Assembly (NCBI GenBank): GCA_963710755.1
Contig: CAVQBK010000001.1
Span: 1-64,000, forward strand
Origin: an uncultured bacterium
GTDB lineage: Bacteria > Oederibacteriota > JAAXVQ01 > JAUVAV01
Length of the DNA stretch: 64,000 bases
Direction: 5' to 3'
A model generated the notes under the pieces. It was given only the letters and a program-made list of their open reading frames with translations. It was not told where the DNA came from and ran no database searches. Each line of letters begins with the position of its first letter. Position 1 is the stretch's first letter. Position numbers and translations under genes: made by a program. Of the stretch, positions 6,001 to 29,380 are shown piece after piece.

Positions 6001-9000
6001 AGTTCTGCAAAGCACGGCAACCAGAACCGCGGTAAGCGGCGAAACCAGCACGGATGTCACCAAGTACGACTACAACGGGGAGACGGGAAAAATCAGCCGC
6101 ATAGAATTGACCACCAGGGAAGGGGACTGGTGGACAACAAGCATCAAGGATAATATTGGCTACTATACCAGCGGCGTTAATGCCGGACAGATGAAAAGCT
6201 ATAGGGAGACCATTACCGATTCCACGGCCACGGCCAAAACCACGGTCAATACAGTCAGCGATTTGCGCTATGACGCTTATGGCCGCCTCATTCATCAGCA
6301 GACCGATGCCGTGGAGACCAATCCGGAAGGCACGCACGAATACTGCGTGGTGTTGGATGTGAATGGGGGCAATGGTTTTGACCAATTAAACCGCATGGTT
6401 AATTATACACGGACGACCACCGAAAAAACGGGCGGCAAAGTGGTGGTTGAGGACATCAGGCAGGCTTACGGTACCACGGATGAGCGCCTGAAAAGTCAGG
6501 ACAAGGACATCACCGAAACCTGCACCCTATCGGGAGAAGATCTCGATCACAGCTACAGCACCAGCAGTACGTACCATTATGCCCAAAATCCTCAAGTAAA
6601 CGAACAAAATCCCCATCCCTGGCAGATGACCGGGGAGACTGTCATCACCACAGATGGTCAGCGTAAGACAACAGAAGAGATCACTTATTCCTGGAATGCT
6701 CAAAAACAGATTGCCGCGAAAAGCAGCACTGTCACGCTGGAAAGCGGGAAGGCCACGCCCGGCGTCTGGAACGTCTCCAGCGATCATTACACCTATGCTC
6801 CAGCTTCAGGCTTGGCGACAGCCTATCGAACCACCACCACCAAAGCCGGAAAGATCACCACCCAGGATTTCACGGGCATCAAATACAATCAGCTTGGTCA
6901 GGTGAGCGAACAGGACATCAGCTATGAAGAAAGAATCGTGGGCAAAACCGCAGCCGAATATCTGCGGGAATGGCGCGAGGAAATCCGAGGCCAGGAATAT
7001 AATGCCGCCGGTCAGCTCATCAGCCAGTCTATTACCCGGGAAGAACGGGATTTAAGAACCATTGAAAACAGCAGTAACTATACCTACGATGCAAAAGGAG
7101 CGCTGACCGGTAAAAAAACAGCCGTGGAAGAAATGGACATTGCCGCGCCCGGCAGCGGTCAGGAGGATGGAGACAATCATCATCTCTGGTATGAGGACAC
7201 CATCAGCAACCAGACCTGCAATGGCTATGGCCAGGTCACTGGCTACACCAAAACCACCAGGCAGCAGGATGCTGCCCGCCATACCGTCAAGACCACGGTG
7301 GAAACCATAACCGATGTTGCCTATAACAACCTGGAGCAGATCACCAGCCAGAAGGACGCCTATCTTGAGACCGCTACTAATCTTCATCATTCGTGGACTC
7401 TGGAAACCGGCTTTACCTATGACGACAACCATCAGGTAAGCACCACTACGCACACCCGGATTGAAGGCGACAAACAAACCACGGAGACGACCTCGGACAT
7501 GCACTATGACTGCTATGGCCGGGTAATCCAATCCACCACGATTGTTAATGAAAAAGACAAAAATGACGCCCAACCTCTAAATTACACCTATACGGTCGCC
7601 CTCACCGGCCAGCAATATGACGGTCTCAACCGGGTTATTGGGTACACCCGCACGACTACCAAGGAATTTGAAGACAGCAAAGTCCAGACGGTCATCCAGA
7701 CATTGACCGGCTGCGGCTATGATAGCCAAGACAATATGTACTATAGCCATATGGTGATCAATGACGGCATCAGCGTTGTTGATACTGATACCTGGAATAC
7801 CTTCAATGCTCTCGGCCAGGTCGAAAGCTATCGCAAAGCGGAATGGAATGAAACCACAAAATTGCTGAAAGCCGAATCCGGCACAGGGCTGACCTATGAT
7901 AACCAAGGCCGGAACAACGCCTCCGTGATCTCCACGGTAGAAACTGATTTGACCCAATCCAGCGTTCCCACGATCAGAGTCGCTGATTTTTCCACGATCA
8001 ATGGCAACAACTTCGAAAAGCGATTTACCACAACTACGGTCAGCACCAGTTACAATACTTTGGGGCAGGTGAGCGGCTTTGACCGGACCACGGAAGAGAG
8101 CGGGAAAATAACCCGGGAACTGGCGGTCGCCAGCTACCATTATGACCGCTATGGCCGGCTGGCTGATTCAAGCATCACCATCACTGAAAAAGATAAAGGC
8201 CAGACCGTCAACGGCACCATTCTCAATCACACCACCACCGTGGCCATGTCGGCTATCACCTACAATGGCAATCAGCAAATGACCGCGTACACCCGCACCA
8301 CCACGGACGGGCAGAGTGTGTTAATCGAAAAAGCCGTTGAAGTGGCCTATGATGACAAAGGCTATGTAAGCGGGTTAACCATGAATGTCACGGAAACGGA
8401 CACCAAACCCGACAATGACCCAAACAAGCTGAAACACAACTACCGCTACACCTTGAGCAATACGCTTAACAGTTACGGGTGGGTGATCGGCTACACCAAG
8501 ACCACCAATGACCAGGGCCGGAAGACCATCGAGGCCGTGGATGGGATCAACGACCCGCAAACCTATGACAAATACGGCAGGTTGCAAACCTACACCAAGA
8601 CCACCACCGAGCGCGGCTTCGACCCGGATACCCTCCAGACCTTTGCCAAGGGCACGGTGGTTACGGAAACCGTGATCAATGGCCCCATCCACTATGACGG
8701 CCTGGGACGGATAACCAATATCCAAGTCAGCCGGGAAACCACGGATGAGGAAACCGGCGGGAACAAGCTTCACCTCTATGAAACAGTCACCACGGAAAAT
8801 AAAGCCGGCAAGGATAAAAATAATCACGACATCGCGGCCTACAATCTGCTGGGCCAGCTCGCCTACAGTGAGCGCACCACCAAATCCTATAGCTATAACG
8901 GCGCTGTCCTGGTGGAAGGCGAGACGAAAACCGAGAAAACCAGCTATACCTATGATGCCAATGGCCGGATCAAGAGCCAATACAGCAGGATTACCGAGAA

Positions 9001-12000
9001 CGGGACAACCACGGATAGGGGCAGTAAAGAGGTCGCTTACAAGGATAACGCCAACCAGGATGTAAGCTATGATGTGAATTACGGCAGCCTTGATGTCAGC
9101 TACACCGTGGAGACCAAGGACATTACCTATGGCCATGATGATAACCGCATGGCCACATTCACCCGCATTACGGATAAGGACGGCCGCCGGACCACGGAAG
9201 CGGTTAACCAAACCTGGTCAAGCGGCCAGGTTGCCGGTCAGACTACGGTGTATACCGACACCACCACCGGCAACGATACAAGTACCCTGAGTAAAACCTG
9301 GACGGTTTCGCGCTCCCGCATCAGCTACAACAATCTTGACCAAGTCCTGGGAGAAACCAGACTCACCACCATCGCGGAAGCCGACACTTCCAAAAACACA
9401 GAAACCCAGGAAACCGTCAGCAGCAACACCTATGACCAGGCCGGGCGGCTATTGACCAGCAGCTCCTATTTCGTGGAAAGAGGGGGCTATACGGAAGTCG
9501 GCAGCCTTTTCCACACCTGGAATCAGGCCATCACCAACAGCGACTACAACAACCTGGGCCAGGCCGGGAGCAAGATCATTGTCACCAGCGGGGACAATGG
9601 CGCGCCCGATAAAGTGAGCACCCTGGACCAGCATGACATTTTGTACAACACCAAAGGCCAGGTATTGGCCTACACCCAAATCAATAGGGAGAAAAACGCC
9701 GCGGGCACGGCTTTGGCGCTGGACACCACCAATGAAATCATCCGCGACTGGACGGTGTACAACAGCCTGGGGCAGGTCACGCAATATAAAGAGAGCCAGA
9801 GAAAAGTCACGCTGACCGATGAGGAACTGGGGATTTTGAAAAACCTGGGCCTGACCGAGGCTGATCTGGAAAGTTATGTTGACCAGGCAGGAAATGCCAT
9901 CGTCAATCTCAAGCTCTCCGATTTGTATGCCGACGGGAAACTGGAAAATATTGATCCTGGTCAGAATATTTACAATCTTTTGGAAAAGATTATAAAAAAT
10001 GCCATAACCACGGCGGTGCCGGACGCCCTGGGTGCCGGGAGCAAAGCCAAGGTCATTGACATGGCTGTGAAAAGTTTCATGTCCCGATTCGATACGAATG
10101 ATATCACCGTCAAATTTGATGCTGTGAAAGATGAGCAGAATAAGCCCATAGAGCTACCTCTTACCTCATTGACCGGCCGTGATCTGCTGTTTTATCTGAT
10201 AGGCGCAAGCTGGGATGCCTATACCCTGGGCCCCGATTCGGAAAACGGGGAGCAAACAGTTTCCAGCATGAGCCTGGACACTCTTTGCGGTGACGCGCGC
10301 ATTGACGCGAATGACGGTTTGGGAGACAAAACGTTAAGGACTGTCATCCAGGATATGCTCAAAGCCAGCTTTCTCGACCTGGGCGCCAATGAAAGTGATG
10401 CCGTGGCCCTGGCAGCTCAGGCCGTGGTGGCGATGGAATGGAAAACGGAAAATGGTGATTCCCTGATGGGCATGACCGTACAGGAGATCAATAACCTTCT
10501 GGACGATGAAACCGGCACGCCCCAGATTGAAGACCAAGACGGAAAATCCGTGGCAAACTATAACATCCTGTTGTTGATCAATAATAAGATTTTCAGCCAG
10601 GCAGACAAAGCCCTGCTGGACGATATCTACCACAATGCAGTCAAAAACATGAACGCCCTCAAGACCAGCAGCGGGCAACCGATGGGGGATCAATCTTTCG
10701 GCGCCCTCATCAGCCAACTGACCGGCGCTGGGAATGATCTGGTTTCACATATCAACAATGTCATCAATGCGGACTTTGTCAATTTCAAAGCCAACAGCAC
10801 CATCAACATCGTGGTGGAAAACCAGACCTATGACAATCAGGACCGTCTGGTGATGCAGCGGGAAAACGCCGTATGGCACAGTATTGGCGGCGGGAACATT
10901 CCCGGCCTGGACAGCGGATGGAAAAATGGTGATGCCGCGGTCACCACCACCTACGCCTATTACGGCAACAGCAACCAGCGTCAAGCCCAGCAGGTGCAGG
11001 TGACCGGCAGCGGGCTGAATGAGAACGCTGACATCAACACCGCTTATTACTACACCGAAGTGGCAGCAGACCGCCAAAATCCCAATGCCGCAAGTTGGAC
11101 CCTTATTCCCGAACACCTGGAAGCACCGAGAGAGCATTTGCCCGAAAATATTACCGACGGAAGCATAGTGTTTTCTAAGGATGAATACGTGGTTGTGAAT
11201 GGAAATGGCGACATTGAAATAAAACCCATCTATTTCATGGCCAAACAGCGCGGCATTGACAGCCTGTATATAGAAAACAACATCAGCTACAACAGCTTCA
11301 ACCAACAGGTACACTCCTGGAGTACCACCGAGCAGGTGGCGCAAAGAACGGAATATTTTTATAAAACAGCCGGAGAAAATAAAACGCCCGACACCATCGT
11401 AGTCACGGCCCGGGTGGGCACTATAACCGAGAACCGGACTACTGACTTCAATCGCCTCGGCCAGGCTCTTACCACGGTCAGTGATAGCTATTCCACGGAC
11501 ATCAACCGCACCAATGTGTACACGATCACCACCAATATGACTTATAGCGCCGACGGCAGCCGGACCGGAGCGCAGGTCACCACCAGCAATCTCTATCATC
11601 CCATTCAGGAAAATCTCAATGAAGAATATCATAATTTAAAAAACATCATGCTCCAGGCGGTCAGCAACGGCGGCAAACAAACCCTGCGCCTGGGTGATAA
11701 AGCACAATACAGCGCCAACCGCTCCATCAGCGGCAATTTCTCCCAGGTCTATAATAACCTGGCGGCGGAAAATGATGAGTTCAAGTACACCAACGGCAGC
11801 ACTATATGGAATAGCTACAAATACGACATCTTCGGCAACATTGACAACCTGGCTACCCAGAGAAGCAGTCACGGCACAAGCTGGCAGGGAGAATTTGAAG
11901 GCGCGGGGTTAAGCCCGATCGGGAAACTGCTCAATGACATCATCACTGTTGTCAGAATCGTGCTCAATGTGCTGAGCAACTATATACCGGTACTAAAACC

Positions 12001-15000
12001 CTTTGCCTTGGCGGCCAATCGCTTACTGGCCGTGGCCCAGGGATACATTAACGGCTTGGATTGGGGAGCGAATTTAAGGTACGCCATGATATCAAGCGTA
12101 GCCGAGGATCTGATGAACGGGATAGACGGTGGGCTGGCCACCACTGCTCTCTCGGATATTGCCAAAACCGCACTCCACATACTGGCCTCAGGCGCGGTGG
12201 CCTATTTATCGGCCCTGGCCAGGGGCATTACCGACGAGGGACAGTTAACCTCAGCCTTTTTGGGAGGCCTGGCTTCAGGGGTAATGGGCACCAAGGCGGA
12301 TGCAGGTAACATCACAGCCCAGATCATCAAAGTCATGGTGGTGGTGGGATTGAACACCGCGGCTGCCGCGGCCGAAGGCTTGAACGGCGATCAACTGCTG
12401 CTGGTGTCCGGCCTATCCCTGGCTGCCACGACCGCCGGTGCTCTCGGAGGGAATGGAAGTACGCAGAAAATGGCGGGTTTCAATGAAATTATTACAGCCA
12501 TCAGCGTGGCTTTTGGCAGCGCCATTCTGGGCCTGGCCGTGGCTGAAATCGTGGGAAAAGACAACGACAGCTTCCAGAGTCAAGCCATCACCGCCGCGGT
12601 GGTGCAGCTTGCAGTGTCAGCCGTGAGCAGCGTAATGAGCATGACCATTCCCGGTGCGGGTATTGTTAGCAATATTGCCTCCAGTACCTTTGGCCAGATG
12701 CTCAAGCAAGGCATGATGGAAACCATCCGTGATAACCACGAGATCAAGACCTACACCATCATCAGCGGACAAACTGCCAAGAGCAGCGATGAACAAATGA
12801 AAGATTTGAGTGAGAAGAACCGCATGGAAGTGGTTTTTGAGCAAACGATTATGAACGATGCCCTCGATCTTGGAGGGGCGCTGGGCAATATAGGCGGCAT
12901 CATGCTAAGTAACAGTCTAACAACTGGAAAGGAACTCTTTAATAATCTAACTGTTTACAATGATCAATTTAGTTATAAAGAAACGGATAGTCAAGCCTTA
13001 CGGCAAAGTGTAGAGAAAGCCGTAATGGAGGATGTGGGCGACCTAAGCCAGCAACTTACGATGAGCGATGAGAATCAGGACAGCAGTTATATGATGATCG
13101 GGGCCAAGGATGATAGCCTGGCCGCCATGGCGGGGATGAGCAAGGAAGCCATTGCCGAGAAGGTGGGCATCAAGCTGGAGATCGACCTGGGCAACCTGAA
13201 GGCCATGGCCGACCGCATGGGAGATTTTCTGAGCAAGCAGGGCATTGATTATGATGCGGTCATGAAAGGGGAAGTCAACGGCAAGGAGACGGCCCTGTTC
13301 TTCAAGGGCGACAAGCTGGTGGCCGCAGGCATGAAGAATGCCACGGGCCAGGAGGAACTGCGCACCTTCAACTTCAAACTCGGCGCTGACGGCAAGATCG
13401 CCGTAGCCAGCGGTAAGATCTTCCGCATGATCGGCAACCAATACAAGGAAGTGGGCGCCTTTGTGCTGGCCAAGCGGGGCAGCGAGGAATTCAAAGACGC
13501 CATGGCCGGAACCAAGGACCGCATCAACAATGCGGAAGTGGCGGCCAAACTGGACCAGGCCGACAGCGTCTACACGGAAACCGACAAGAGCGGCAACACC
13601 CGCCAGGTGTATATGGATGCCCAAGGCAAGGCCCTGGTGAGCGAATCCCTAATGTCCGACGGCAGCATGAAGATGCTGGTGTATGACTATGACAACCTGG
13701 CAAAAGGCGTGCTGGCCCAAGGCAGCATCTTTGTGGGTGAGAACGGCAAGTACAGCAGCCAAGCCAGCGGGACCTTTCAGATCAAACAGCAAACCGGCGT
13801 GGCAGGCCTTAACAATGCTGGTCAGGCCATTATCGAGGCTCTGGGTACTGGCCAAATGTCACGCACAGTCTACACGGAAACCATGAACAATGGCGCCACC
13901 CGCCAAATCAGCACCAATGCCAAAGGCCAGATCGAATACGTCTACAATAAAGCCGTAGACGGCAAGGAGCGTGTGGTGGTATTTGGAACAACGAATGCCA
14001 TTAACGTAGAGACAAGGGATTCCCTTGTCTCTACAAACATCGTCAATTTCAATGATCTATCTACCGACGACCAGAACCAGATCATGGCCGCTTTGCCGGT
14101 TATGAACAACCAGGACCCCTCGGCCGTGACCTCCAAGCTGGTCAACCTTCAGGACGCCATGAACATGGCCGCCCTGGCCAAACAAGCCCAAAGCATGGGC
14201 TTCCAGCTGGATGTGAAAGACGCCACCATCTTTGTCACCATCCCCGCCCTTACTTCCTCTCCCTCCAAGGGAGAGGATGGAGGTGAGGGATCCATCAATG
14301 TCCAAATATTAAACGTCTTTGAGGATAAAGACGGCGCCCTCATCATGCAAGGCCGCGTGGTGGAACAGGATGAAAATGGCATGCAAGCCGTGGGCGACGA
14401 AATCATCATTGCGCCTGCGAACAGCGCCTTTGCCAAGGATGCACTGGGCACGAATGGTGATCAAATCTCTGATAACGCTGCCACTATCCTCCTGCGTACC
14501 ACAACTTCCCCCTCTCCCTCCCAGGGAGAGGGCAGGGGTGAGGGTGAAATCACCACCGCCCAGGCCCTCGACGCCAACCGCCAGCCTCTGGGCGAACCGG
14601 TGACCATTAGCAAGGAAACCATGGATAAGGCCTTCGCCAATCTGAAAGACCAGGGTGATCATTCCGTAGGGGCGAATAATCATTCGCCCGTAATCAACGC
14701 CGTGAAATCAACAATCAAAAAATCCACCCAGGCAGCAGTTGGTGTGAAGGGAACGGCATTGAATTTGATCGACCAATCTATAAATAATCTGGCCATGTTC
14801 ATAGCCCAAAGTGAATCCGACGCAAATGACTGGAAGAATGCCGACTTAAGCGGTCTCGCGAAAGTGCTTAATGAAGCTGAAACCAAAGTAGGCGGTCTTG
14901 GGATGACGCCGCAGGCGGAATTATTAAAAGTCCTGGCCAACAAAATTGGTGTGGACCTTGGCGCCGGTGACTGGAGCCAGAAACTTCTCGCCAAACTCAG

Positions 15001-18000
15001 CAACAATCTGGGCAGTGAATACAAAAACCTGGAAGCCAAGGCCAGTATGACCAGCCAGGAGATTATCGGCATGGCCAAAGCGCTGTTGGGGCAATTAGTA
15101 TCGCTCCGGGAGCAAGTGAAACAAGGTGCAGTAAAAGGTATGGATCAAGTTAAAACGCTGCTGGGTGGCATTGAAAAACAAATTACTGACATCAAGAAAA
15201 CATGGGAAGTCAAGGCGTCTGTCCAGAAGTTGGACAGCCTGATGCCTTTAGTCGGAAACAGCGGCAAAGCCATCTTAGGAATGCTCAAAATAAGCCGTCT
15301 GCTGAACCAAACAGCTCATGATGGTGATGGCCTGGGATCAAAAATTCTGGCCCATATTAATCCCGGCAATATATTGGATATAAGTTTCAGTGTGTTGGAA
15401 AGCAGCAAGGTGGACTTTGGGACCAAGGTACTGGCAGCCACCGCCCTGGGTGCGGGCATAAGCTTGCAATTGATGGTGGTGAGCAGTGTGCCCCTTGCCG
15501 CTGTCTGGGCGTCGGAACCGGTAATTAAAAAAGGTGCTGATTTTGCGCTGGATAAAATGGGTGTAGAAGGTCCGGCTAAGGTTTTTTGGTCAAAGGTTAT
15601 CTGCAATGCCGCCTATTTCTTTGGCCTCGGTGGAGCCACCACCAGTTTGAAAAAAGGCTTCATTAATTGGATGAAGAATGGGTTGGCCAAAGGCGCTGTT
15701 ATGGGCGTCGTGGCCAAACTTGCCTTGGAACCTCTGGCTGAACTAGTCGGAATGCTTGGGAAAAATGATGCTCAAAAAGAGGCATTGAAATTAACCACCT
15801 TTGGGCTGTGTACCGCAGGGCTGGCCGGGGCCATGAAAGGCAAGTTAGGCGAAAAACTGGAAAAGCTTGGAGAGGAAAAAGAGCAGTTGTCTGAAACTGC
15901 GGGGGTAAAAAGCATCAAGACCAAGGCGGAAGTGAATCTGCTCCAAGCCAAGTCCAAAGCCATCATCCAGGAAGCAGAATATAAAAACGCTGCCAAAGAA
16001 ATAAAAACAGCGCGAAAAGCAATTGAACGTACGGCGTCCAGGGAAGAGATGAGCGCCAAAACCAAGCAAACTGTGGATGCTCTAAAAACCAAAGAAGCAT
16101 CCTTGGAAGGCAAGGCCAAAGACCTGAACCGCCAGGCCAAGGTGCTGGAACAGCGAGTGGCAGAGACAAAACAGCTTGAAAATAAAACGGAAATAAGGCA
16201 TGCTGAAAAACAAATCAACACCCTCAAAAAAGAAATCAATGCAGGAGAAAAAGTACTCAAGCAGGATTTGAAATCCGTCAAATCCCTGACCAAGGAGGCC
16301 AATCGTGTTCTGGCAAAAGAAAGTACCGCCATTAATCAACGACGAGGAAGTACCGGACAACTGGACCAAGGAACAAATACGGAGTTATTACTCAAAGAAG
16401 CTGAAGCAAATTTGGGAGCGGCAAAAGAGGTCAGTAGAGGAAATAATCTCGCTGCAGAACGAGTTGAAGGATTTAGAAACCAAATTGCAGAAGGTGGAGC
16501 GAGAATCGCAAGAGCAGTTGCAGAAGGTGGAGCGAGAATCGCAAGAGCAGTTGCAGAAGGTGGAGCGAGAATCGCAAGAGCAGTTGCAGAAATTGGAAAA
16601 GGAATCAAAAATACTGCAGGAAGATTATTCCAAACAACAGAAAGAGTCGGCAAAACTGGTAGCCAATTACGAGAGACTAGTGAGCGAGCTCAAGCGGCTA
16701 AAAAAGACCTAGGGCAAGCTCGGCTGGAACAACTTACCAATCAATTGGAAACTCAGATGATCAAAGGCGCTGAAAGTCTGGGTGATATAGATATTCCTAA
16801 ATTAGGGTATGAGAAGGAGAAGCAAAACTTTATTCTCAAAGGGCTGGGGACCTTGATCAAGGGTGACAATCCAACCGGTCAACTTCTCCGCTACGGTGCC
16901 ATCGGGGGAGCAGTCCTTCTGCTCACCCTCCCCGCCAACGCCGGAGCAGCCACGACCAATCCCGGCGGGGTAGTCAATGCCTCTTCCTTGACAACCGCGG
17001 GCTTGCAAGAGACTCAGGCAAAAATCAGCGGTAATACGGCAAATCAAAACTCAAATCCAATTCAAGCCGGAGTAAAGGCCGTGGTTGACAAACAACCAGC
17101 CCTTAATCTCCTGAAAGCGGTAGATAATAAGATCGAAACCCTCAAACCGCAGCTCCAAGCCGGATGGCAGACCTACACCACCAATTTATCGGAGATGAAA
17201 CATGCCTATGACCAAGCCAAAGGCTGGACTAAGGTAGAAATCACCACCGCCCAGGCCCTCGACGCCAACCGCCAACCCGTCGGTCAATCCGTCACCATCA
17301 CCAAAGCCGCGATGAACAAAGCCTTTGCGAATCTGAAGAACCAGTCCCGCGATACCGCAGGGAATGGTCGCGACCGTTCCCTACCAACCACCGTGAAATC
17401 CATGCTAACCCATGCTGTTGAAAAAACCAAGGCAGTGGCTAAGGATTCAATAGACAAAGCCACCAGTGTCCGTGGAACCACGGTAGCGGAAGCAAAAACC
17501 GCCTTGCTCGATAGTCTCGCTGAATTGCGGACCGCGGCCAGCGGCGTTTTGGATCAAGCCAATGCGATCAAAGCTGAGGGCGATAAAGAAGCAGGAGACC
17601 TGGCGGCGCAAGTGAGGACAGGCGTGGACAAAAGCGTGCAAGGCCTGCCGGGCGGCGCGCTGCTGGAAGCCACCGCCAAAGTTACACCGGTCAAACAATT
17701 ATTGGAGAAAGGATTGGAAAAATTAGGGAAGAAATTTGGTATAGATCTGAAAGCTGAATTGAAAAATGCCTCGCCAGAAGTGATTATTGCCAAGTTGGAA
17801 AGCATTATTGCCAAAGTAGACCAAATAACCGTCGCGATCAAAGCGCAAGTATCGCTGGGAGTGGCTGCAGTCCGTGCTTATGCCGTGCAAATCATCGGCT
17901 TGCGAAACGACCTGGTGGCAGCCGTGAGACAGTGGGATAAAGTGGACATGAAACTGGTCGTCCTGGGCAAAGCCGCAGGCCAGGTGGGCGAAGCCGGCAA

Positions 18001-20494
18001 AGGCGTGCTGGTGATGACCATGATGACGCATATGGTGGAAAAAGCGGCCAATGAAGGACACCTGGGCGCACAGATGCTGGCGGAAGTCAACCCCGCGGGC
18101 ATATTCAGCCTGATGGTGGATGTCATGCTGGAAAGCAAGATGAGCGCTGGTGGCAAAACCGGAGCGTTTTTTGCGGGCCTGATATTGTATGCCGCCTATA
18201 GTCTGACTGCCGCCAAAGTTCCGCTGGCGCTTGCGCTCATGCCTCTGATCCCCCTGGCGGAAAAAGGGCTGGTAGCATTGGGGGTGAGCCCGAAAGTCAG
18301 CAAATGGATCGCCAAAGGGCTATTCTACCTGGCATTCTCCGGAACCCTGTTAAAAGGCGGCGTGAGGAGTCTGTTCAGCGCCAAAACATTGCTGCCCGCG
18401 CTGGGCAGCATGGGGCGCAATACCATCCTCATGGGCGGATTGGGCGAAGGCCTGACCTTGGGCGGAAAACAACTAGGGGCGGCCTTGGGGCTCAAAGGCA
18501 AACAGCTGGACGCCTTTGCAGGCAGCTTTGGCTTATTGGGTACTACCCTGGGCATGGGGCTGCTTGCGGAAAGGCCAGTGGGAACCCGGGCCAAAGCGCT
18601 CGATTTTCAGCAAGCCAAAGTAAGGGCTGAAGCCGCGCCCAAAGAGCGCTTGCTGGAAATGCAAAATACGGAGCAAGCGACCAACACCACTAAAGCCGGC
18701 ATCAAAGCGCTTGACCATCTTGCGGAAAAAGGTATAAAGGATGCAAAGCAAACCCTGACCAAGCTGGAGAACGTAAAAAAGCAACTCGATCCCATGGCCG
18801 GCGAAAATCCGAAAGCCGCTAAACTGCAAGCTCAAGCGGAAAAAATCAGTGGCAGTATCAAGCAAAAACAGGGCGAGCTGGCCCGGCAGGAAGGCAAGCT
18901 CAATGATTTGCGGCAGCAATCCAAAGCGCTGCAGAGCGAGACCAACCAGCGCTGGCAGGAAGGTAAAATCAGTGAAGCAGAACTAATAAGCGTAAAGCAA
19001 AAACAAGCCGGACTGGAGAAAGCAAAGCTCCAAACCGAAAGGCAAGTGGAGCAAGCCCGGCAACAACTCAGCAAGATGGAGGCAAAAGCCGATGTTTTGG
19101 AACAAAAAACTGCCAAACTCAGTGAGCGACCCGGATCTGGACGAACTGGGAACCTTCAAGTTTCCCGAAAGCTGGACCAAGCAGGACGTTATAAACTACT
19201 ACTCGAAGAAGCTGCTCAAAATTTGGGAGAAGCAAAGGAAACTCGTAGAGAGGCAGGCGGAATTAGAAACAGAGTTACAAAACTTACAGAAGGACTCGGA
19301 AAGCAAGTTACAAAACTTACAGAAGGACTCGGAAAGCAAGTTACAAAACTTACAGAAGGACTCGGAAAGCAAGTTACAAATATTGCAGAACGATTGTTCA
19401 AATCTAGAACAAAAGTACTCGGTTCTAGTGAAGAAGTACGAGAGACTAGTCGCCGAGCTGAAATCACTAAACAAGAACTAGCGCCCATCAAAGCGCAAGA
19501 AGCTGCGATTAATAAGCAACTGGCCAAGTGGGAAACATTGGACGCGATTTCAAAAACTGAGATCGCGGACGTAAAATATGGGAAGGAAGGAGCCGAGGGA
19601 AAAGACGGGGGTAGAAACCCAATCGCCAATTTCCTGGCACCAATTGGCGAACATGTGCGCCAGTTATTACCACAAGCCGCGCCATATGGAGCCCTGGCCG
19701 GAGCAGTCCTGCTGCTTTCGCTGCCCGCCAAAGGCGGAGCCGCAACTATTTCCGCCGGTTCCACTAATCCCACGAATTTTAAAATATCTGTTCAACCGGC
19801 AATGGGAGTCGAGCAAAAACAATCGCTCGTAAATCCATCAGAAGAGCAGCATAATCTTGGTGATAAAATTAGCTCTGAAAAAGAAATAGCTGCCGAGAAG
19901 TCCTTGATCCAAAAAAAATATAACATCGCAATTATTGATGGGACAAACAAATGGACCGGGCATGAGGTGCAGCTGTTCAAAGAAACCATCAGCATTTTGC
20001 CCGAGGCCTATAGGAGCAAAGATACCCTGGGCTTTGCAAAGCGTGATTCGGTTTATATTGCTGAAGATAAATCTCAAATACCGCAAGTGTCGGGATACTA
20101 CTCGTTGAATGAAAAACAATTGCATATATTTGACTCTGCCTTAAGACCCTATGATTTTAAAACAGCGGACCAACAACTAAAAGGCACAATTGTGCATGAA
20201 CTGACCCACTCGATACAGTATCAGGACAGCAAGACCAAAGAGGTTTATGAAAATGCCTGGAATAATCCCCTGGTGCGGGATTACGCAAAAATTACCGGAT
20301 GGAATAGCGCAGCCAAATTCGACTATGGCGGAGATGTGAAAAAACTTCCCAGCGCCTATGCCGGTACCAGCGTAAAAGAAGACATAGCCGAAAGCGCGAT
20401 GTTTTATGTAATTGAACCTGCGCGGTTGAAAAAAGCAAGCCAGGAACGATATGACTTTTTAAAACGCCGGATCTTTAATGGGAAAGAATATTAA
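2..20494 (+). CDS. Giant YD/Rhs-like repeat protein with hydrophobic modules and a C-terminal Zn metallopeptidase (polymorphic-toxin-like); 5'-partial
   Basis: The frame of ORF 80..20494 has no stop back to base 2, so the true start is upstream of the window. Dozens of Y(N/D)xxG(Q/R) repeats; Gly/Ala/Leu-rich hydrophobic block at ~11900-12720; HELTH at 20195-20209 followed by YAGTSVKEDIAES. Confidence 0.85.
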   Translation, partial: TDQRGYTWQDFGEASLLFQQLDQHQALLNEQQAVVLDYTGYKQVAQDNWDELCKQMGAEIFSDAGHYLHMTADQVITDITSRLKGQTELSGEKEYDKDLALDQLNLAYDTLVKARNGLSDAIDDLIGAENDWRQAVKNFDGYLTSIQGDYGQGSNFLKTYTETLDGFLTSAGLSENTDGALKDAIGNFVTAMTTDWNVPGWPKDSLERNGQSAEALKDSIIGQTTTTATATAIKNQAQAIIDALGQVDGDIANLNTAINGRLGTLTTLIGNENSGAIKAVSDAESNFNNAKGDLDGPSVTIAKDYATQLQDARNALVTYTTLCSNIQTETDKLDNMGMIWTQYSHSTTLLGSTVNWYYAWGLGYTPSGQDTADLKLGTYTLEKAQVPASWDSPVDNRTLCENTLASYNEYKKLYPSYSESESKYQTALENYNTQFKKVYGTTRNNLYDGGFQQTWQEAKDNLTTLQDQQTAAEKAQQLLSSSDKLDSSIDEFNGLAQGLGSVVTKINNGLNQCLNGTDLDASTSLNQTARNLTDLQGNYPGIKEQYTTAYDNIYNAGTGKQVLYDQAASEWTAADATRAQYQTSLESLVHEQDNLNLATANLDTETTLADQINAGLNGPDGIYQQTLNRLADQTFTIDGTTFTLSNDQAVQLLAKGSVVLANQQTITRDEISQKAQVKININETKTSARIDLSYDTMGRLTGYKEITFTGQTIQYKTDPTQPWQQKQWLQLDEQIRRAILNADQTVQVGLPGSGSLQIQQALETKYNNQGQITSQTIQTSETTYSDDPDEDPYTHEYTVTTSQMTYDDKNQLSSYCRETDDPQENRVLLEEVVDEPLAYDDQGRMTSSRIKSTETINGVVTERVVTTRDMAYNSLDQLITYNRQTIEGGKVTYEKILSPMRYNQQNQMVFNHSAVIETEQKNGVPEISFDAIRDLPTTEDALKSLEDKAKVTETMMLDAAYNPRNQMTSMLRLTRESGKIILENMHDMAYDTSGRLTKSISDITEAGIVAADAGQKLDYKTMTVTTENLAWDNKKQVTEQKRTTVEGDKTTEEHLTNMTYFPDTGLLKSSFNTIAEHYRVSATETYDHTYTVQTDIQSYNSSKQISRQTQITTDGEKVTTATNAADIVPALPEYTYENGNVTSKTVLITETSLPYVDDNGNQVPAGAYTNSWTIADHDMTYDPFGRLESTIRDTIRQDDENIYYTREKNTYSYDAEGRAAETISSKKEYQAGINAGPGAITDAEKAAEYKTTVTWVPSSGYNTRGQMEHYTTISYNGETLTYDHQEYAWSALIADQKRAILNAEDQENKLGEVVSVTSMSDITYGGAVTQDLATVIQKAFINVTLDDLGHNDQEPAVRAGKIELFDSTFGTGQLVCNGTAITGLTDDQKIKFINQAVSHPASDTVMLTQGAQTYSLQDLSYSIHADKMDSWTATTTIEGPVAQDLSTIIQKAFSNVTLDDLGHNDQEPGVRAGKTELFDSTFGKGQLLHDGTVITGLTDDQKINFINQAVSHPAADTVMLTQGAQDYCLKDLSFSIRLNDISTTIRLSSAYNQIQQVEGYKEITMQGRGLILNGTFTKWSDLTDQRKQDIIAEWQSLQTKGVLSVSANRAALEDIGLLPNNFVTYTNMQNMTYTSDGQAKTWQSTTQELQVKSSDIYSARQPADPPVTTVALAVNRVTSSDRLDTVYNGNNKPVAVRETTTSAGGITTEGWTFYGYDDQSRATDVMHLTRTLSNDPTVAGSSWTVEQTHVVEFDTVRPEKNLYKKVKTLTLYDVTLTDAMLANVEGNKALTEIINKEDSIADCESKAYIEDSEHRSEIETQEFNYDYNDADAPKTTELIKITQDSDHNYNVERTDFFYLSGNGDPKPTNARVTKINNATNISTANNFFSYDFQNSSDQQITIEDTAYSYDAQGMLAGSRTLRTSPGGAVTAEASAFTYEGGQLTRVEKDIYQNLANENTSKPFTLAGAGQNLPNDFKLLQGNCPKSHEITTYDSYDAENRVLQSTATRTAVSGETSTDVTKYDYNGETGKISRIELTTREGDWWTTSIKDNIGYYTSGVNAGQMKSYRETITDSTATAKTTVNTVSDLRYDAYGRLIHQQTDAVETNPEGTHEYCVVLDVNGGNGFDQLNRMVNYTRTTTEKTGGKVVVEDIRQAYGTTDERLKSQDKDITETCTLSGEDLDHSYSTSSTYHYAQNPQVNEQNPHPWQMTGETVITTDGQRKTTEEITYSWNAQKQIAAKSSTVTLESGKATPGVWNVSSDHYTYAPASGLATAYRTTTTKAGKITTQDFTGIKYNQLGQVSEQDISYEERIVGKTAAEYLREWREEIRGQEYNAAGQLISQSITREERDLRTIENSSNYTYDAKGALTGKKTAVEEMDIAAPGSGQEDGDNHHLWYEDTISNQTCNGYGQVTGYTKTTRQQDAARHTVKTTVETITDVAYNNLEQITSQKDAYLETATNLHHSWTLETGFTYDDNHQVSTTTHTRIEGDKQTTETTSDMHYDCYGRVIQSTTIVNEKDKNDAQPLNYTYTVALTGQQYDGLNRVIGYTRTTTKEFEDSKVQTVIQTLTGCGYDSQDNMYYSHMVINDGISVVDTDTWNTFNALGQVESYRKAEWNETTKLLKAESGTGLTYDNQGRNNASVISTVETDLTQSSVPTIRVADFSTINGNNFEKRFTTTTVSTSYNTLGQVSGFDRTTEESGKITRELAVASYHYDRYGRLADSSITITEKDKGQTVNGTILNHTTTVAMSAITYNGNQQMTAYTRTTTDGQSVLIEKAVEVAYDDKGYVSGLTMNVTETDTKPDNDPNKLKHNYRYTLSNTLNSYGWVIGYTKTTNDQGRKTIEAVDGINDPQTYDKYGRLQTYTKTTTERGFDPDTLQTFAKGTVVTETVINGPIHYDGLGRITNIQVSRETTDEETGGNKLHLYETVTTENKAGKDKNNHDIAAYNLLGQLAYSERTTKSYSYNGAVLVEGETKTEKTSYTYDANGRIKSQYSRITENGTTTDRGSKEVAYKDNANQDVSYDVNYGSLDVSYTVETKDITYGHDDNRMATFTRITDKDGRRTTEAVNQTWSSGQVAGQTTVYTDTTTGNDTSTLSKTWTVSRSRISYNNLDQVLGETRLTTIAEADTSKNTETQETVSSNTYDQAGRLLTSSSYFVERGGYTEVGSLFHTWNQAITNSDYNNLGQAGSKIIVTSGDNGAPDKVSTLDQHDILYNTKGQVLAYTQINREKNAAGTALALDTTNEIIRDWTVYNSLGQVTQYKESQRKVTLTDEELGILKNLGLTEADLESYVDQAGNAIVNLKLSDLYADGKLENIDPGQNIYNLLEKIIKNAITTAVPDALGAGSKAKVIDMAVKSFMSRFDTNDITVKFDAVKDEQNKPIELPLTSLTGRDLLFYLIGASWDAYTLGPDSENGEQTVSSMSLDTLCGDARIDANDGLGDKTLRTVIQDMLKASFLDLGANESDAVALAAQAVVAMEWKTENGDSLMGMTVQEINNLLDDETGTPQIEDQDGKSVANYNILLLINNKIFSQADKALLDDIYHNAVKNMNALKTSSGQPMGDQSFGALISQLTGAGNDLVSHINNVINADFVNFKANSTINIVVENQTYDNQDRLVMQRENAVWHSIGGGNIPGLDSGWKNGDAAVTTTYAYYGNSNQRQAQQVQVTGSGLNENADINTAYYYTEVAADRQNPNAASWTLIPEHLEAPREHLPENITDGSIVFSKDEYVVVNGNGDIEIKPIYFMAKQRGIDSLYIENNISYNSFNQQVHSWSTTEQVAQRTEYFYKTAGENKTPDTIVVTARVGTITENRTTDFNRLGQALTTVSDSYSTDINRTNVYTITTNMTYSADGSRTGAQVTTSNLYHPIQENLNEEYHNLKNIMLQAVSNGGKQTLRLGDKAQYSANRSISGNFSQVYNNLAAENDEFKYTNGSTIWNSYKYDIFGNIDNLATQRSSHGTSWQGEFEGAGLSPIGKLLNDIITVVRIVLNVLSNYIPVLKPFALAANRLLAVAQGYINGLDWGANLRYAMISSVAEDLMNGIDGGLATTALSDIAKTALHILASGAVAYLSALARGITDEGQLTSAFLGGLASGVMGTKADAGNITAQIIKVMVVVGLNTAAAAAEGLNGDQLLLVSGLSLAATTAGALGGNGSTQKMAGFNEIITAISVAFGSAILGLAVAEIVGKDNDSFQSQAITAAVVQLAVSAVSSVMSMTIPGAGIVSNIASSTFGQMLKQGMMETIRDNHEIKTYTIISGQTAKSSDEQMKDLSEKNRMEVVFEQTIMNDALDLGGALGNIGGIMLSNSLTTGKELFNNLTVYNDQFSYKETDSQALRQSVEKAVMEDVGDLSQQLTMSDENQDSSYMMIGAKDDSLAAMAGMSKEAIAEKVGIKLEIDLGNLKAMADRMGDFLSKQGIDYDAVMKGEVNGKETALFFKGDKLVAAGMKNATGQEELRTFNFKLGADGKIAVASGKIFRMIGNQYKEVGAFVLAKRGSEEFKDAMAGTKDRINNAEVAAKLDQADSVYTETDKSGNTRQVYMDAQGKALVSESLMSDGSMKMLVYDYDNLAKGVLAQGSIFVGENGKYSSQASGTFQIKQQTGVAGLNNAGQAIIEALGTGQMSRTVYTETMNNGATRQISTNAKGQIEYVYNKAVDGKERVVVFGTTNAINVETRDSLVSTNIVNFNDLSTDDQNQIMAALPVMNNQDPSAVTSKLVNLQDAMNMAALAKQAQSMGFQLDVKDATIFVTIPALTSSPSKGEDGGEGSINVQILNVFEDKDGALIMQGRVVEQDENGMQAVGDEIIIAPANSAFAKDALGTNGDQISDNAATILLRTTTSPSPSQGEGRGEGEITTAQALDANRQPLGEPVTISKETMDKAFANLKDQGDHSVGANNHSPVINAVKSTIKKSTQAAVGVKGTALNLIDQSINNLAMFIAQSESDANDWKNADLSGLAKVLNEAETKVGGLGMTPQAELLKVLANKIGVDLGAGDWSQKLLAKLSNNLGSEYKNLEAKASMTSQEIIGMAKALLGQLVSLREQVKQGAVKGMDQVKTLLGGIEKQITDIKKTWEVKASVQKLDSLMPLVGNSGKAILGMLKISRLLNQTAHDGDGLGSKILAHINPGNILDISFSVLESSKVDFGTKVLAATALGAGISLQLMVVSSVPLAAVWASEPVIKKGADFALDKMGVEGPAKVFWSKVICNAAYFFGLGGATTSLKKGFINWMKNGLAKGAVMGVVAKLALEPLAELVGMLGKNDAQKEALKLTTFGLCTAGLAGAMKGKLGEKLEKLGEEKEQLSETAGVKSIKTKAEVNLLQAKSKAIIQEAEYKNAAKEIKTARKAIERTASREEMSAKTKQTVDALKTKEASLEGKAKDLNRQAKVLEQRVAETKQLENKTEIRHAEKQINTLKKEINAGEKVLKQDLKSVKSLTKEANRVLAKESTAINQRRGSTGQLDQGTNTELLLKEAEANLGAAKEVSRGNNLAAERVEGFRNQIAEGGARIARAVAEGGARIARAVAEGGARIARAVAEIGKGIKNTAGRLFQTTERVGKTGSQLRETSERAQAAKKDLGQARLEQLTNQLETQMIKGAESLGDIDIPKLGYEKEKQNFILKGLGTLIKGDNPTGQLLRYGAIGGAVLLLTLPANAGAATTNPGGVVNASSLTTAGLQETQAKISGNTANQNSNPIQAGVKAVVDKQPALNLLKAVDNKIETLKPQLQAGWQTYTTNLSEMKHAYDQAKGWTKVEITTAQALDANRQPVGQSVTITKAAMNKAFANLKNQSRDTAGNGRDRSLPTTVKSMLTHAVEKTKAVAKDSIDKATSVRGTTVAEAKTALLDSLAELRTAASGVLDQANAIKAEGDKEAGDLAAQVRTGVDKSVQGLPGGALLEATAKVTPVKQLLEKGLEKLGKKFGIDLKAELKNASPEVIIAKLESIIAKVDQITVAIKAQVSLGVAAVRAYAVQIIGLRNDLVAAVRQWDKVDMKLVVLGKAAGQVGEAGKGVLVMTMMTHMVEKAANEGHLGAQMLAEVNPAGIFSLMVDVMLESKMSAGGKTGAFFAGLILYAAYSLTAAKVPLALALMPLIPLAEKGLVALGVSPKVSKWIAKGLFYLAFSGTLLKGGVRSLFSAKTLLPALGSMGRNTILMGGLGEGLTLGGKQLGAALGLKGKQLDAFAGSFGLLGTTLGMGLLAERPVGTRAKALDFQQAKVRAEAAPKERLLEMQNTEQATNTTKAGIKALDHLAEKGIKDAKQTLTKLENVKKQLDPMAGENPKAAKLQAQAEKISGSIKQKQGELARQEGKLNDLRQQSKALQSETNQRWQEGKISEAELISVKQKQAGLEKAKLQTERQVEQARQQLSKMEAKADVLEQKTAKLSERPGSGRTGNLQVSRKLDQAGRYKLLLEEAAQNLGEAKETRREAGGIRNRVTKLTEGLGKQVTKLTEGLGKQVTKLTEGLGKQVTNIAERLFKSRTKVLGSSEEVRETSRRAEITKQELAPIKAQEAAINKQLAKWETLDAISKTEIADVKYGKEGAEGKDGGRNPIANFLAPIGEHVRQLLPQAAPYGALAGAVLLLSLPAKGGAATISAGSTNPTNFKISVQPAMGVEQKQSLVNPSEEQHNLGDKISSEKEIAAEKSLIQKKYNIAIIDGTNKWTGHEVQLFKETISILPEAYRSKDTLGFAKRDSVYIAEDKSQIPQVSGYYSLNEKQLHIFDSALRPYDFKTADQQLKGTIVHELTHSIQYQDSKTKEVYENAWNNPLVRDYAKITGWNSAAKFDYGGDVKKLPSAYAGTSVKEDIAESAMFYVIEPARLKKASQERYDFLKRRIFNGKEY
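3982..4610 (+). repeat. Tandem duplication of a ~97-aa insert domain (period 339 bp) in the YD-repeat region
   Basis: QDLxTxIQKAFxNVTLDDLGHNDQEP...LTQGAQxYxLxDLSxSI occurs twice with high DNA identity. Confidence 0.9.
14006..14034. repeat. REP-like palindrome (GTAGAGACAAGG type), in frame within the giant gene
   Basis: GTAGAGACAAGGGA-T-TCCCTTGTCTCTAC with perfect 14-bp arms; near-identical to the copies at 23396 and 24784. Confidence 0.85.
14255..14289. repeat. REP-like palindrome (CCTCTCCC/GGGAGAGG...GGTGAGGG type), in frame
   Basis: TCCTCTCCCT-CCA-AGGGAGAGGA-TGGAGGTGAGGG; encodes SSPSKGEDGGEG. Confidence 0.75.
14510..14544. repeat. REP-like palindrome (CCCTCTCCC/GGGAGAGGG...GGTGAGGG type), in frame
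   Basis: CCCTCTCCCT-CCC-AGGGAGAGGG-CAGGGGTGAGGG; encodes PSPSQGEGRGEG. Confidence 0.8.
14666..14692. repeat. REP-like palindrome (GTAGGGGCGAAT type), in frame
   Basis: GTAG-GGGCGAAT-AATC-ATTCGCCC-GTA; encodes VGANNHSPV. Confidence 0.8.
16305..16712 (+). CDS. Nested +1-frame coiled-coil protein (135 aa) inside the giant gene, copy A
   Basis: AAGGAGG at 16292-16298 sits 6 nt before GTG; paralog of 19092..19481 (MFWxKK...WTK...YYSKKL..IWE.Q...YERLV.ELK.L.K.*). Confidence 0.7.
   Translation: MFWQKKVPPLINDEEVPDNWTKEQIRSYYSKKLKQIWERQKRSVEEIISLQNELKDLETKLQKVERESQEQLQKVERESQEQLQKVERESQEQLQKLEKESKILQEDYSKQQKESAKLVANYERLVSELKRLKKT
16485..16591 (+). repeat. Perfect 33-bp tandem repeat x3.2
   Basis: Unit TTGCAGAAGGTGGAGCGAGAATCGCAAGAGCAG. 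Confidence 0.95.
17357..17384. repeat. REP-like palindrome (GTAGGGAACGGTCGCGACC type on the - strand), in frame
   Basis: GCAGGGAATGGTCGCGACCGTTCCCTAC, a near-perfect palindrome; encodes AGNGRDRSL. Confidence 0.8.
19092..19481 (+). CDS. Nested +1-frame coiled-coil protein (129 aa) inside the giant gene, copy B
   Basis: GGAGG at 19078-19082 sits 9 nt before ATG; paralog of 16305..16712 with an equivalent TAG stop. Confidence 0.7.
   Translation: MFWNKKLPNSVSDPDLDELGTFKFPESWTKQDVINYYSKKLLKIWEKQRKLVERQAELETELQNLQKDSESKLQNLQKDSESKLQNLQKDSESKLQILQNDCSNLEQKYSVLVKKYERLVAELKSLNKN
19273..19380 (+). repeat. Perfect 33-bp tandem repeat x3.3
   Basis: Unit AGTTACAAAACTTACAGAAGGACTCGGAAAGCA. Confidence 0.95.
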
Positions 20495-20509
20495 AAGGAG
20501 GATGTGGTA

Positions 20510-20911
20510 ATGTTAACCAAATCAAAATGGATGCTCTTGTTGCTGTTGTGTTCCTATCCTTTGCTTGGAGGTTGTGGTATGGATAACTCAACGAATAAAT
20601 CATCGTCGTCAAATCTGCCTGGCAAAACAGCGCCGATTGTAAACAAAAACATCGTGCCCGGGCAAATCGGCGTGGGGTTTGCCAAAGGAGTAACGGAAAA
20701 GCAAGCATGCGAAATATTAGATAAATACAAATTGACCTATGAGAAAAACAACAAAATAAATGCTGGGAAAAGGTTTTTTTATGAGACTGAATTGAAATAT
20801 ATCGTCAAAGTGCCAGTCGGCGAAGAAGGGAAATGGCTTGGCGTTTTTCAGAAGGATAAAGAGATTAAAATGGCCGTTTTCAACTTTAATGACAATATTG
20901 ATGTGGATTAA
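20510..20911 (+). CDS. Small lipoprotein, candidate immunity protein/protease inhibitor
   Basis: AAGGAGG at 20495-20501 directly follows the giant gene stop; lipobox LGG-C; VPGQIGVGF...EILDKY resembles subtilase propeptide starts. Confidence 0.75.
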   Translation: MLTKSKWMLLLLLCSYPLLGGCGMDNSTNKSSSSNLPGKTAPIVNKNIVPGQIGVGFAKGVTEKQACEILDKYKLTYEKNNKINAGKRFFYETELKYIVKVPVGEEGKWLGVFQKDKEIKMAVFNFNDNIDVD

Positions 20912-25209: not shown

Positions 25210-25539
25210 GTGAATGGCATGGCCCGCTTTAACCATCCACGCTTGCAAAGAGAAGCCAAGACTGTGGAACACATGATTGGGTTATACTGCTCGGCACATC
25301 ACGCGGAAGATCCTTATGTCCTGCCTGTGGGCAATTGTTGGACGGCACGGACGCTGCAATGCCCCTTTGGCCAGGACAAACCGGCCTGCAACCACTGCCG
25401 GATTCACTGCTATCCGCAAGGTTATAGAGAACGTATTCGTGTGGTCATGCGCTATGCCGGCCCGCAGCTGGTCTGGCATCATCCCATCCTGGCCATCCGT
25501 CATTGGTGGGATGCTTGGAATGAAAGAGATGATTCCTGA
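25210..25539 (+). pseudogene. Degenerate YgbA-like (nitrous oxide-stimulated promoter family) copy
   Basis: Paralog of 29051..29380; the LCPACGQLLD segment lies in another frame and the frame is restored by a downstream deletion. Confidence 0.75.
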
Positions 25540-29050: not shown

Positions 29051-29380
29051 ATGGCCCCGGTTAAGCACCATCGTTTGCAAAGAGAAGCAAAGACAGTCGA
29101 GAAGATGATCGCCCTCTTCTGTTGCGCCCACCATAAGGAGAGACAGTTGTGTGCCGCCTGCACACAACTGTTGGACACGGCATTAAACCGTTTGGCAAAG
29201 TGCCCCTTTGGCAGTGATAAGCCGGCTTGCAACCACTGCCGTGTTCATTGCTATCCGGATTGGGCCAGAGAAAAGATCCGGACGGTCATGCGCTACGCCG
29301 GCCCGCGGCTGATATGGCATCATCCCATCCTGACAATCCGTCATTTGTGGGATGCACGGCAAGGCCGCCATGGTTCCTGA
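29051..29380 (+). CDS. YgbA-like (nitrous oxide-stimulated promoter family) Cys-rich protein
   Basis: REAKTVEKMI..C..HH..LC..C..CPFG.DKPAC.HC..HCY..VMRYAGPRL..HP. Confidence 0.85.
   Translation: MAPVKHHRLQREAKTVEKMIALFCCAHHKERQLCAACTQLLDTALNRLAKCPFGSDKPACNHCRVHCYPDWAREKIRTVMRYAGPRLIWHHPILTIRHLWDARQGRHGS

Follow-up and report, generated by a model that had tools for sequence, protein, structure and literature searches.

Putative genes nested in the +1 frame of two duplicated modules of a giant candidate division FCPU426 gene appear to be the main target of selection where the frames overlap

Can a giant bacterial gene carry, inside two of its own duplicated modules, further protein-coding genes in a different reading frame, and if so, which of the two frames is under selection? 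The question is raised by the first 64 kb of contig C1 (here called the window) from the genome of a candidate division FCPU426 bacterium (3.44 Mb in 13 contigs). A giant open reading frame (ORF) on the forward strand at 2..20494 spans 6830 codons and is 5'-open at the contig end, so that its product would exceed 6830 aa once complete. It contains two paralogous modules, A (14501..17200, +) and B (17213..19900, +), identified in the host frame by their match to each other (alignment A2), and each module contains a same-strand ORF in the +1 frame, namely, nested gene A (16305..16712, +; 135 aa, GTG start, TAG stop) and nested gene B (19092..19481, +; 129 aa, ATG start, TAG stop). A first-pass annotation had pointed to these two ORFs and proposed the hidden frame as the main target of selection, with the giant frame being held open; both ORFs indeed lie within the giant ORF at the positions that it gave. 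On the comparisons reported below, we consider it likely that they are genuine nested genes, each with translation from a start of its own, and that the nested protein is the main target of selection, with the giant frame threaded across it.

Both ORFs are exceptional within their host. The stop-to-stop intervals that hold them (161 and 140 codons) are the longest of the 315 +1-frame intervals in the giant ORF, the next being 116 codons, and the third frame of A has 10 stops. Both are also preceded by translation start signals of their own. A Shine-Dalgarno-like AAGGAGG (16292..16298, +) is located 6 nt 5' of the GTG of nested A, and a GGAGG (19078..19082, +) is located 9 nt 5' of the ATG of nested B; the strings, their spacings and the TAG stops are as first described, as are the shared MFW(Q/N)KK beginnings, which read (GTG)FWQKK in A and MFWNKK in B. 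Counting two further DNA copies introduced below, a 5-nt core of AGGAGGT is found 6-11 nt before the aligned GTG, ATG, TTG or ATG in 4/4 copies. As a background, such a core occurs 4-12 nt upstream at 1.3% of positions in the giant gene and at 2.0% in the host gene of the third copy. Only four of the 470 +1-frame start codons in the giant gene are preceded by a Shine-Dalgarno core, namely, the two nested starts and two further ones, whose ORFs have 5 and 28 aa.

The predicted nested proteins have a basic, aromatic N-terminus, a W-T-K-E-Q...Y-Y-S-K-K-L motif (WTKEQIRSYYSKKL in A, 16362..16403, +, alignments A1 and A3; WTKQDVINYYSKKL in B, 19173..19214, +, nested alignments) and then about 90 coiled-coil residues. 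Assignment to the coiled-coil structural class is based on a hydrophobic periodicity of 3.5-3.67 residues (z of 5-9) in 6/6 members and on a Gly+Pro content of 0-3% after the motif. No signal peptide or membrane segment was seen by eye. Translated in the host frame, the same DNA gives a Gly/Ala/Arg/Lys-rich repeat with 10-14% Gly+Pro, and it reads as a Gly/Ala/Arg-rich linker between the coiled coil and the hydrophobic segment of the module. The overlaps are purine-rich, as had been noted from the sequence at first sight, but this feature is wider than the ORFs to which it had been tied: an AT skew of 0.4-0.55 begins ~450-550 nt upstream of them, in the host coiled-coil part (15850-16750 and 18550-19600).

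A six-frame search recovered a third copy, coding for 127 aa, from another genus of the same family (G005:C82, which corresponds to L006 and L038). It is in the +1 frame at the equivalent place in a homologous module, starts with TTG 8 nt downstream of a GAGGT core, ends with TAG and carries the motif WTKEQLTEHYSKKL; its interval is the longest of the 117 +1-frame intervals in its host (129 codons, the next being 81). In addition, a hand-made motif pattern retrieved a metagenome contig (L045) with an ORF 72% identical over 54 residues to one of the called proteins described below (P0006), starting at ATG 319 after AAGGAG in the +1 frame of a 5'-open ORF (3-689). Thus, in the window and in G005 the nested ORFs lie wholly within a longer same-strand ORF in another frame, and in L045 the arrangement is truncated. 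Both the nested ORF and the host frame of L045 lose their likeness to the family near base 480, where a transporter-like gene on the opposite strand (434-1408, 324 aa) has its 3' end; the contig is either a truncated remnant or a chimera. No likeness between the L045 host frame and the modules was detectable by hhalign (E 0.7), and therefore homology of the L045 host gene cannot be claimed.

Tandem arrays occupy an equivalent place in the coiled coil of all three full-length nested genes, with units of 11, 11 and 7 codons. Nested A has a perfect 33-bp array of 3.2 copies (16485..16591, +; nested LQKVERESQEQ, host AEGGARIARAV), nested B has a perfect 33-bp array of 3.3 copies (19273..19380, +; nested LQNLQKDSESK, host VTKLTEGLGKQ), and the G005 copy has a perfect 21-bp array of 4.5 copies (L038 4132-4225). 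Because the units are whole codons, both frames are preserved, and expansion or homogenization of an array alters the lengths of both encoded proteins together. Units of one array are identical, those of different copies are not, and this points to ongoing expansion or homogenization at one spot.

Which of the two frames is constrained can be asked from the similarity between copies. In BLASTP comparisons of A and B over the same DNA, the nested frame gave 90.5 bits with 54/143 residues identical (38%) and 93/143 positive (65%), versus 52.0 bits and 46/144 identical (32%) for the host frame. We then resampled codons in 2000 replicates, fixing the protein of one frame and redrawing its codons from the usage of the giant gene. 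With the host proteins fixed, the +1 frame stayed free of stops in 0.85% of the replicates for A, 0% for B and 1.1% for the G005 copy, and the observed local scores between nested proteins (A-B, 262; A-G005, 158; B-G005, 125) were 10-13 standard deviations above the null, for which the means were 55, 44 and 40 and the maxima were 121, 89 and 76. With the nested proteins fixed, the host frame was stop-free in 0/2000 replicates for each copy, indicating that the host frame is held open. The host frame is thus also coding across the overlap; its flanks look like ordinary coding sequence, and host segments downstream of it are conserved. The host scores for the same three pairs were 154 (null mean, 66; null maximum, 133), 77 (52; 105) and 46 (41; 77), so that only A and B have host likeness beyond that induced by the nested frame.

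The phase of conservation along the DNA points to the same frame. In a frame-blind DNA alignment, identity by nested codon position followed the order 2 > 1 > 3 in all three pairs, also after correction for composition. When the alignment was built on the host protein (549 upstream, 120 overlap and 130 downstream codons), identities at host positions 1/2/3 were 0.49/0.57/0.36 upstream, 0.45/0.57/0.35 downstream and 0.53/0.63/0.68 in the overlap; host wobble identity rises to 0.55-0.80 from the nested start and falls to 0.2-0.3 directly after the nested TAG. Several substitutions noted from the beginning are present in the sequence, TCA/TCG, GTG/GTC, CTC/CTG and AAG/AAA being silent in the nested frame and changing K>E, E>R, Q>E and A>I in the host protein.

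Frame-specific divergence between the copies, which the first-pass annotation had put forward as a check, was estimated from p-distance ratios over overlap-aware site classes, following the logic of OLGenie as given in the accessible part of its description (PMC7531306). The nested-frame pNN/pNS ratios were 0.53, 0.53 and 0.66, with all bootstrap intervals below 1; that is, changes altering both proteins were about half as frequent per site as those altering only the host protein. The host-frame pNN/pSN ratios were 1.26, 1.14 and 1.42, so that changes altering both proteins were no rarer than those altering only the nested one. The ratios were unchanged when extra repeat units were dropped. 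Nested-silent sites are saturated (p of 0.73-0.94) and the differences are phased, and recent gene conversion was accordingly rejected as the source of the A-B likeness.

Codon usage, scored per codon by a log-likelihood trained on 991 long ORFs of this one genome, agrees for the two copies in the window: nested A scored 0.44 and nested B 0.21, with ordinary genes at 0.435 +/- 0.13, and the host frame in the overlaps scored -0.05 (A) and 0.04 (B). Of all windows along the giant gene, the overlaps are the two that score lowest in the host frame and also the two that score highest in the +1 frame. Over the ~400-nt overlap, the resampling, the codon positions and the site-class ratios together demonstrate purifying selection at the level of the predicted nested amino-acid sequence, while the host frame is stop-free and otherwise barely constrained. 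The original proposal of selection on the hidden frame was therefore borne out by every test that was run, with the addition of a third copy in another genus, in which the Shine-Dalgarno core, start and stop are also kept, as the first-pass annotation had suggested should be looked for in homologs.

Beyond these copies, a profile search against 1.84 billion representative proteins returned four matches at E<=0.001. Three of them (P0005-P0007; 147, 127 and 99 aa) share the aligned initial Met, and in each the motif, in the form W-[TN]-[KR]-E-Q-[IVL]-x-x-[YH]-Y-[SA]-[KE]-K, leads into a coiled coil; the fourth (P0008, 1075 aa, 8 stretches) was set aside. By sequence, the putative nested genes are a small family consisting of A, B, the G005 copy, the truncated L045 copy and these three called metagenome proteins. 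Word-index homolog searches yielded nothing at E<=0.001 with the nested profile A1 (near lengths) or with the module profile A2 (near and longer lengths). A metagenome scan with patterns derived from A1 gave 591 stretches, 0 of which were confirmed, and a scan of viral contigs with the motif pattern gave 0. Six weak A1 profile matches in the phylum (E of 2e-5 to 6e-4; ORFs of 185-998 aa) were treated as noise; four of the six span only profile positions 66-137, and the others span 14-82 and 34-135. An A3 match in another genome (G060) was rejected, as it is a 309-aa coiled-coil protein beside an FtsX-like gene, which we take to be EnvC-like.

Four DNA runs gave contigs that were short and of low depth; near-identical ones, which occur in marsh or soil samples, cover 19052-19335 and 19351-19600 and leave nested A essentially uncovered; among the differences listed, none falls inside 19092-19481. 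A salt-marsh contig (run X3) follows module B up to 19250, a nested codon boundary, and then diverges, with both frames open over the 30 letters shown; it may represent a strain with a different central coiled coil.

Several observations weigh against reading A and B as real, independently started genes whose protein is the main selected product. Translation of the nested genes is inferred from sequence alone, no RNA run being listed for 15800-19600, and no specific function is supported for their product. No promoter-like site was found upstream of the nested starts, and there are 3 such sites in 15800-19600 versus 2.0 +/- 1.7 expected; with nothing beyond chance, transcription with the giant mRNA would be the simplest arrangement. 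The host frame is not free either, given that the A-B host score (154) is higher than any score under its null (maximum, 133). Divergence is high and close to saturation, which makes the distance ratios rough. In G005, where the locus itself supplied the small training set, codon usage gives an ambiguous result (nested, -0.02; host, 0.12) and no preference for the nested frame. The full sample comprises three full-length DNA copies from two genomes, that is, two independent contrasts, plus one truncated contig, and the family is rare, with strong matches in 2/99 genomes of the phylum and 2/15 of the order. In a same-genus genome (G001; 500 contigs), only the module start was found, at a contig end, and since the module is cut there, the silence of this genome says little. 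Finally, P0005-P0007 may be free-standing genes.

With these points in mind, we weighed four other explanations. It is extremely unlikely that the nested ORFs are chance open frames arising from purine-rich Lys/Glu/Gln coiled-coil coding, with the A-B likeness an echo of DNA duplication. The purine richness does extend past the ORFs, and stop-free intervals of 142 codons occur in the other off-frame (18202-18630 in module B and L038 3390-3818); we used these intervals, which are Arg/Gly/Cys-rich and by eye mutually unrelated, as controls, being examples of chance ORFs. However, the +1 frame was open in <=1.1% of resamplings for each copy, nested similarity lies far above the null, and the modules are only 30% identical in the host frame, with flanking wobble sites near saturation at 0.35-0.36; moreover, the cross-genus copy retains frame, start, Shine-Dalgarno core and motif, and the best-conserved codon position is nested position 2. 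This last feature, a three-base period in the nested phase, also makes it highly improbable that a conserved nucleic-acid element (an RNA structure or a regulatory or recombination site) is present with no second protein. Raised host-synonymous conservation would be expected from any overlapping functional element, and the perfect arrays show that DNA-level processes are at work, but such an element leaves the conservative nested amino-acid changes (65% positives), the saturated nested-silent sites, the stop-free frame in three diverged copies and the gene-like codon usage of A and B to be explained.

An SD-like (Shine-Dalgarno-like) element within a coding region can stimulate frameshifting, as in prfB and dnaX, and ribosomes might thus enter the +1 frame by a programmed shift near such an element and end at the TAG, giving a giant protein that is cut short and ends in a different coiled coil, instead of a separate small protein. 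The +1 frame of copy B, with 32 open codons before the ATG, would permit this, but +1 stops lie 5 codons before the GTG in A (interval starting at 16290) and 2 codons before the TTG in G005 (interval starting at 3944), and a frame closed just before the starts argues against entry by frameshifting. A site of the prfB kind has a host-frame stop or slow codon shortly after the SD-like element and a +1 frame open across the site, whereas no host-frame stop or obvious pause was found here. Together with a legitimate start codon at the aligned first position in all four DNA copies and the common Met at which three independently called proteins begin, these features make frameshifting very unlikely. 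We also regard it as quite unlikely that the nested ORFs are relics, that is, once free-standing small genes that were swallowed by an extended giant frame and are no longer expressed. The codon usage of nested A, as gene-like as that of ordinary genes, beside that of the host frame, which is off-frame-like, fits an older nested gene, and the called homologs P0005-P0007 would agree with such a history if they stand free. Nevertheless, the A, B and G005 copies have diverged to 28-44% nested identity with silent sites saturated and yet keep frame, start, Shine-Dalgarno core, stop and motif, indicating that selection continued after the copies separated, in the embedded state.

Returning to nested genes translated from their own starts, we hypothesize that ribosomes would start internally on the giant mRNA at the Shine-Dalgarno core 6-11 nt before the aligned GTG/ATG/TTG and would produce a soluble protein of 127-135 aa. 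Its short head would carry the motif M-F-W ... P-x-x-W-T-K-E-Q-[ILV]-x-x-[YH]-Y-S-K-K-L and would be followed by a ~90-residue coiled coil, the middle of which is a perfect tandem array of 11- or 7-codon units. The product may assist its carrier module, whether in assembly, as a chaperone or as a partner of some other kind, and embedding would then couple its synthesis to that of the module and let the pair duplicate together. The position of the nested genes and their co-duplication with the modules suggest such service to the module, a proposal that we hold tentatively and think somewhat doubtful; the first-pass annotation had suggested an immunity protein, a chaperone or a coiled-coil ruler that would move with its module. 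A complex prediction of nested A with residues 250-900 of module A gave no verdict (score of 0.00). The description of the modules as "effector-like" in the first-pass annotation found no backing, as searches of Pfam, NCBIfam, PHROGs and PDB sequence identified no family for them. A toxin/immunity pairing likewise found none, with no toxin domain in the modules in the same four resources (PADLOC was not searched).

A more speculative extension, which we consider possible though not probable, is that the small gene would be the senior tenant: genes for coiled-coil proteins of ~100-150 aa would travel as stowaways in giant genes of uncultured bacteria, the giant frame would be threaded across them and merely kept open, and module and partner would duplicate and spread as a cassette. 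Codon usage in A and B suggests that the nested gene may be older than the host frame, whereas that in G005 does not.

By eye, the N-terminal two thirds of the giant product is Thr/Tyr/Asp-rich with YD-like repeats, and this part is followed by hydrophobic and coiled-coil parts, the two paralogous ~900-residue modules and, at the C-terminus, a segment with HExxH. At E<=0.01 the product matched neither a Pfam nor an NCBIfam family, and a single match lay far below threshold. In the host frame, the modules are 30% identical over residues 8-828 of 900 (E of 9.4e-32). Searches of Pfam, NCBIfam, PHROGs, PDB sequence and the ESM Atlas with the modules, the nested proteins and the HExxH segment returned nothing or sub-threshold coiled-coil matches. 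The best-conserved host-frame piece is formed by the first ~45 codons of the modules (EITTAQALDANRQP...KAFANLK; 14522-14656 and 17213-17347), which are 67% identical between A and B. The piece is found again at the contig end of the same-genus genome mentioned above (G001:C264:3956-4165, L048) and within a different open frame of 8540 codons (G005:C8:2105-2284, L051), and it may mark where modules of giant proteins are joined or processed.

Elsewhere in the giant gene, a 339-bp tandem duplication (3987-4610; 1.8 copies, 89% matches) gives two copies of a ~113-residue host-frame segment (GPVAQDL...LGHNDQEP...). An ORF of 135 aa (20504-20911) begins 10 nt past the stop of the giant gene and has a lipoprotein-like N-terminus (a hydrophobic stretch, then GGC); it had no family match and might partner the HExxH segment at the C-terminus of the giant protein. 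Further downstream, two paralogous Cys/His-rich ORFs of 109 aa (25210-25539 and 29051-29380; HPRLQREAKTVE...CPFG.DKPACNHCR.HCY) are located 3.8 kb apart and look like a small metal-binding protein family.

If A and B are genes, they extend a short list, since few same-strand nested bacterial genes have been characterized and all of those are tiny, whereas the products here have 127-135 aa. Constraint is stronger on the hidden frame than on the annotated one, a result reached by sequence comparison alone, through paralogs within one gene and a second genus. Conserved proteins inside giant genes can escape standard annotation of metagenome-assembled genomes. For a giant protein with no recognizable family, the nested product offers a small, tractable component that is probably tied to each module, and the locus provides a natural case of dual coding, in which one stretch of DNA would specify two helical, repeat-bearing proteins. 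Should the small gene prove to be the older occupant, gene callers would be expected to miss such genes systematically, giant genes would act as operon-like containers with partners made from internal starts, and the homogenized 11-/7-codon arrays would tune coiled-coil length in both products simultaneously.

Word searches, with supplements not covered, found no paper on nested genes in giant genes or in FCPU426, which is no proof of absence. In phage lambda, Rz1 is reportedly embedded wholly in the +1 frame of Rz, and the two products are said to act as partners. The embedding in the +1 frame is shared, and a partnership of the two products is only a hypothesis here; Rz1/Rz is a phage lysis cassette of a lipoprotein and a membrane protein, whereas our host is a giant chromosomal gene and no signal peptide or membrane segment was seen in its nested product. 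ComS, reportedly of 46 aa, is a regulator unrelated to its host enzyme; in contrast, the nested products here are longer, occur once per duplicated module, show conservation between genera and have no sequence similarity to ComS, and within the overlap it is the nested frame, not the host frame, that is the better conserved. The likeness lies in the arrangement, since comS of Bacillus subtilis is a small protein gene in a distinct overlapping frame within a very large gene (srfAB, in a 27-kb operon), with its expression tied to that of the host gene, as described in the accessible part of the source (PMC12915044).

GndA within gnd of Escherichia coli is likewise a same-strand, frameshifted nested ORF with a non-ATG start, and the products contribute independently (PMC11230408); the accessible part of that paper counts only a handful of such nested ORFs as characterized, with comS and rpmH the only two before 2019. 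GndA differs in being 36 aa long, in the +2 frame and within a housekeeping enzyme gene; the ORFs described here are ~4x longer, and their support is comparative, not experimental. The accessible part of another report (PMC8850804) describes olg1/olg2 of Pseudomonas aeruginosa, long ORFs that lie inside annotated genes and for which purifying selection has been argued. Those are antisense and evolutionarily young, whereas the present ones are same-strand, occur in two genera and as paralogs, and have the nested frame dominant. The same-strand nested gene is therefore a known kind of gene; what differs here is its length, its presence once per duplicated module, its conservation across genera and the dominance of the nested frame.

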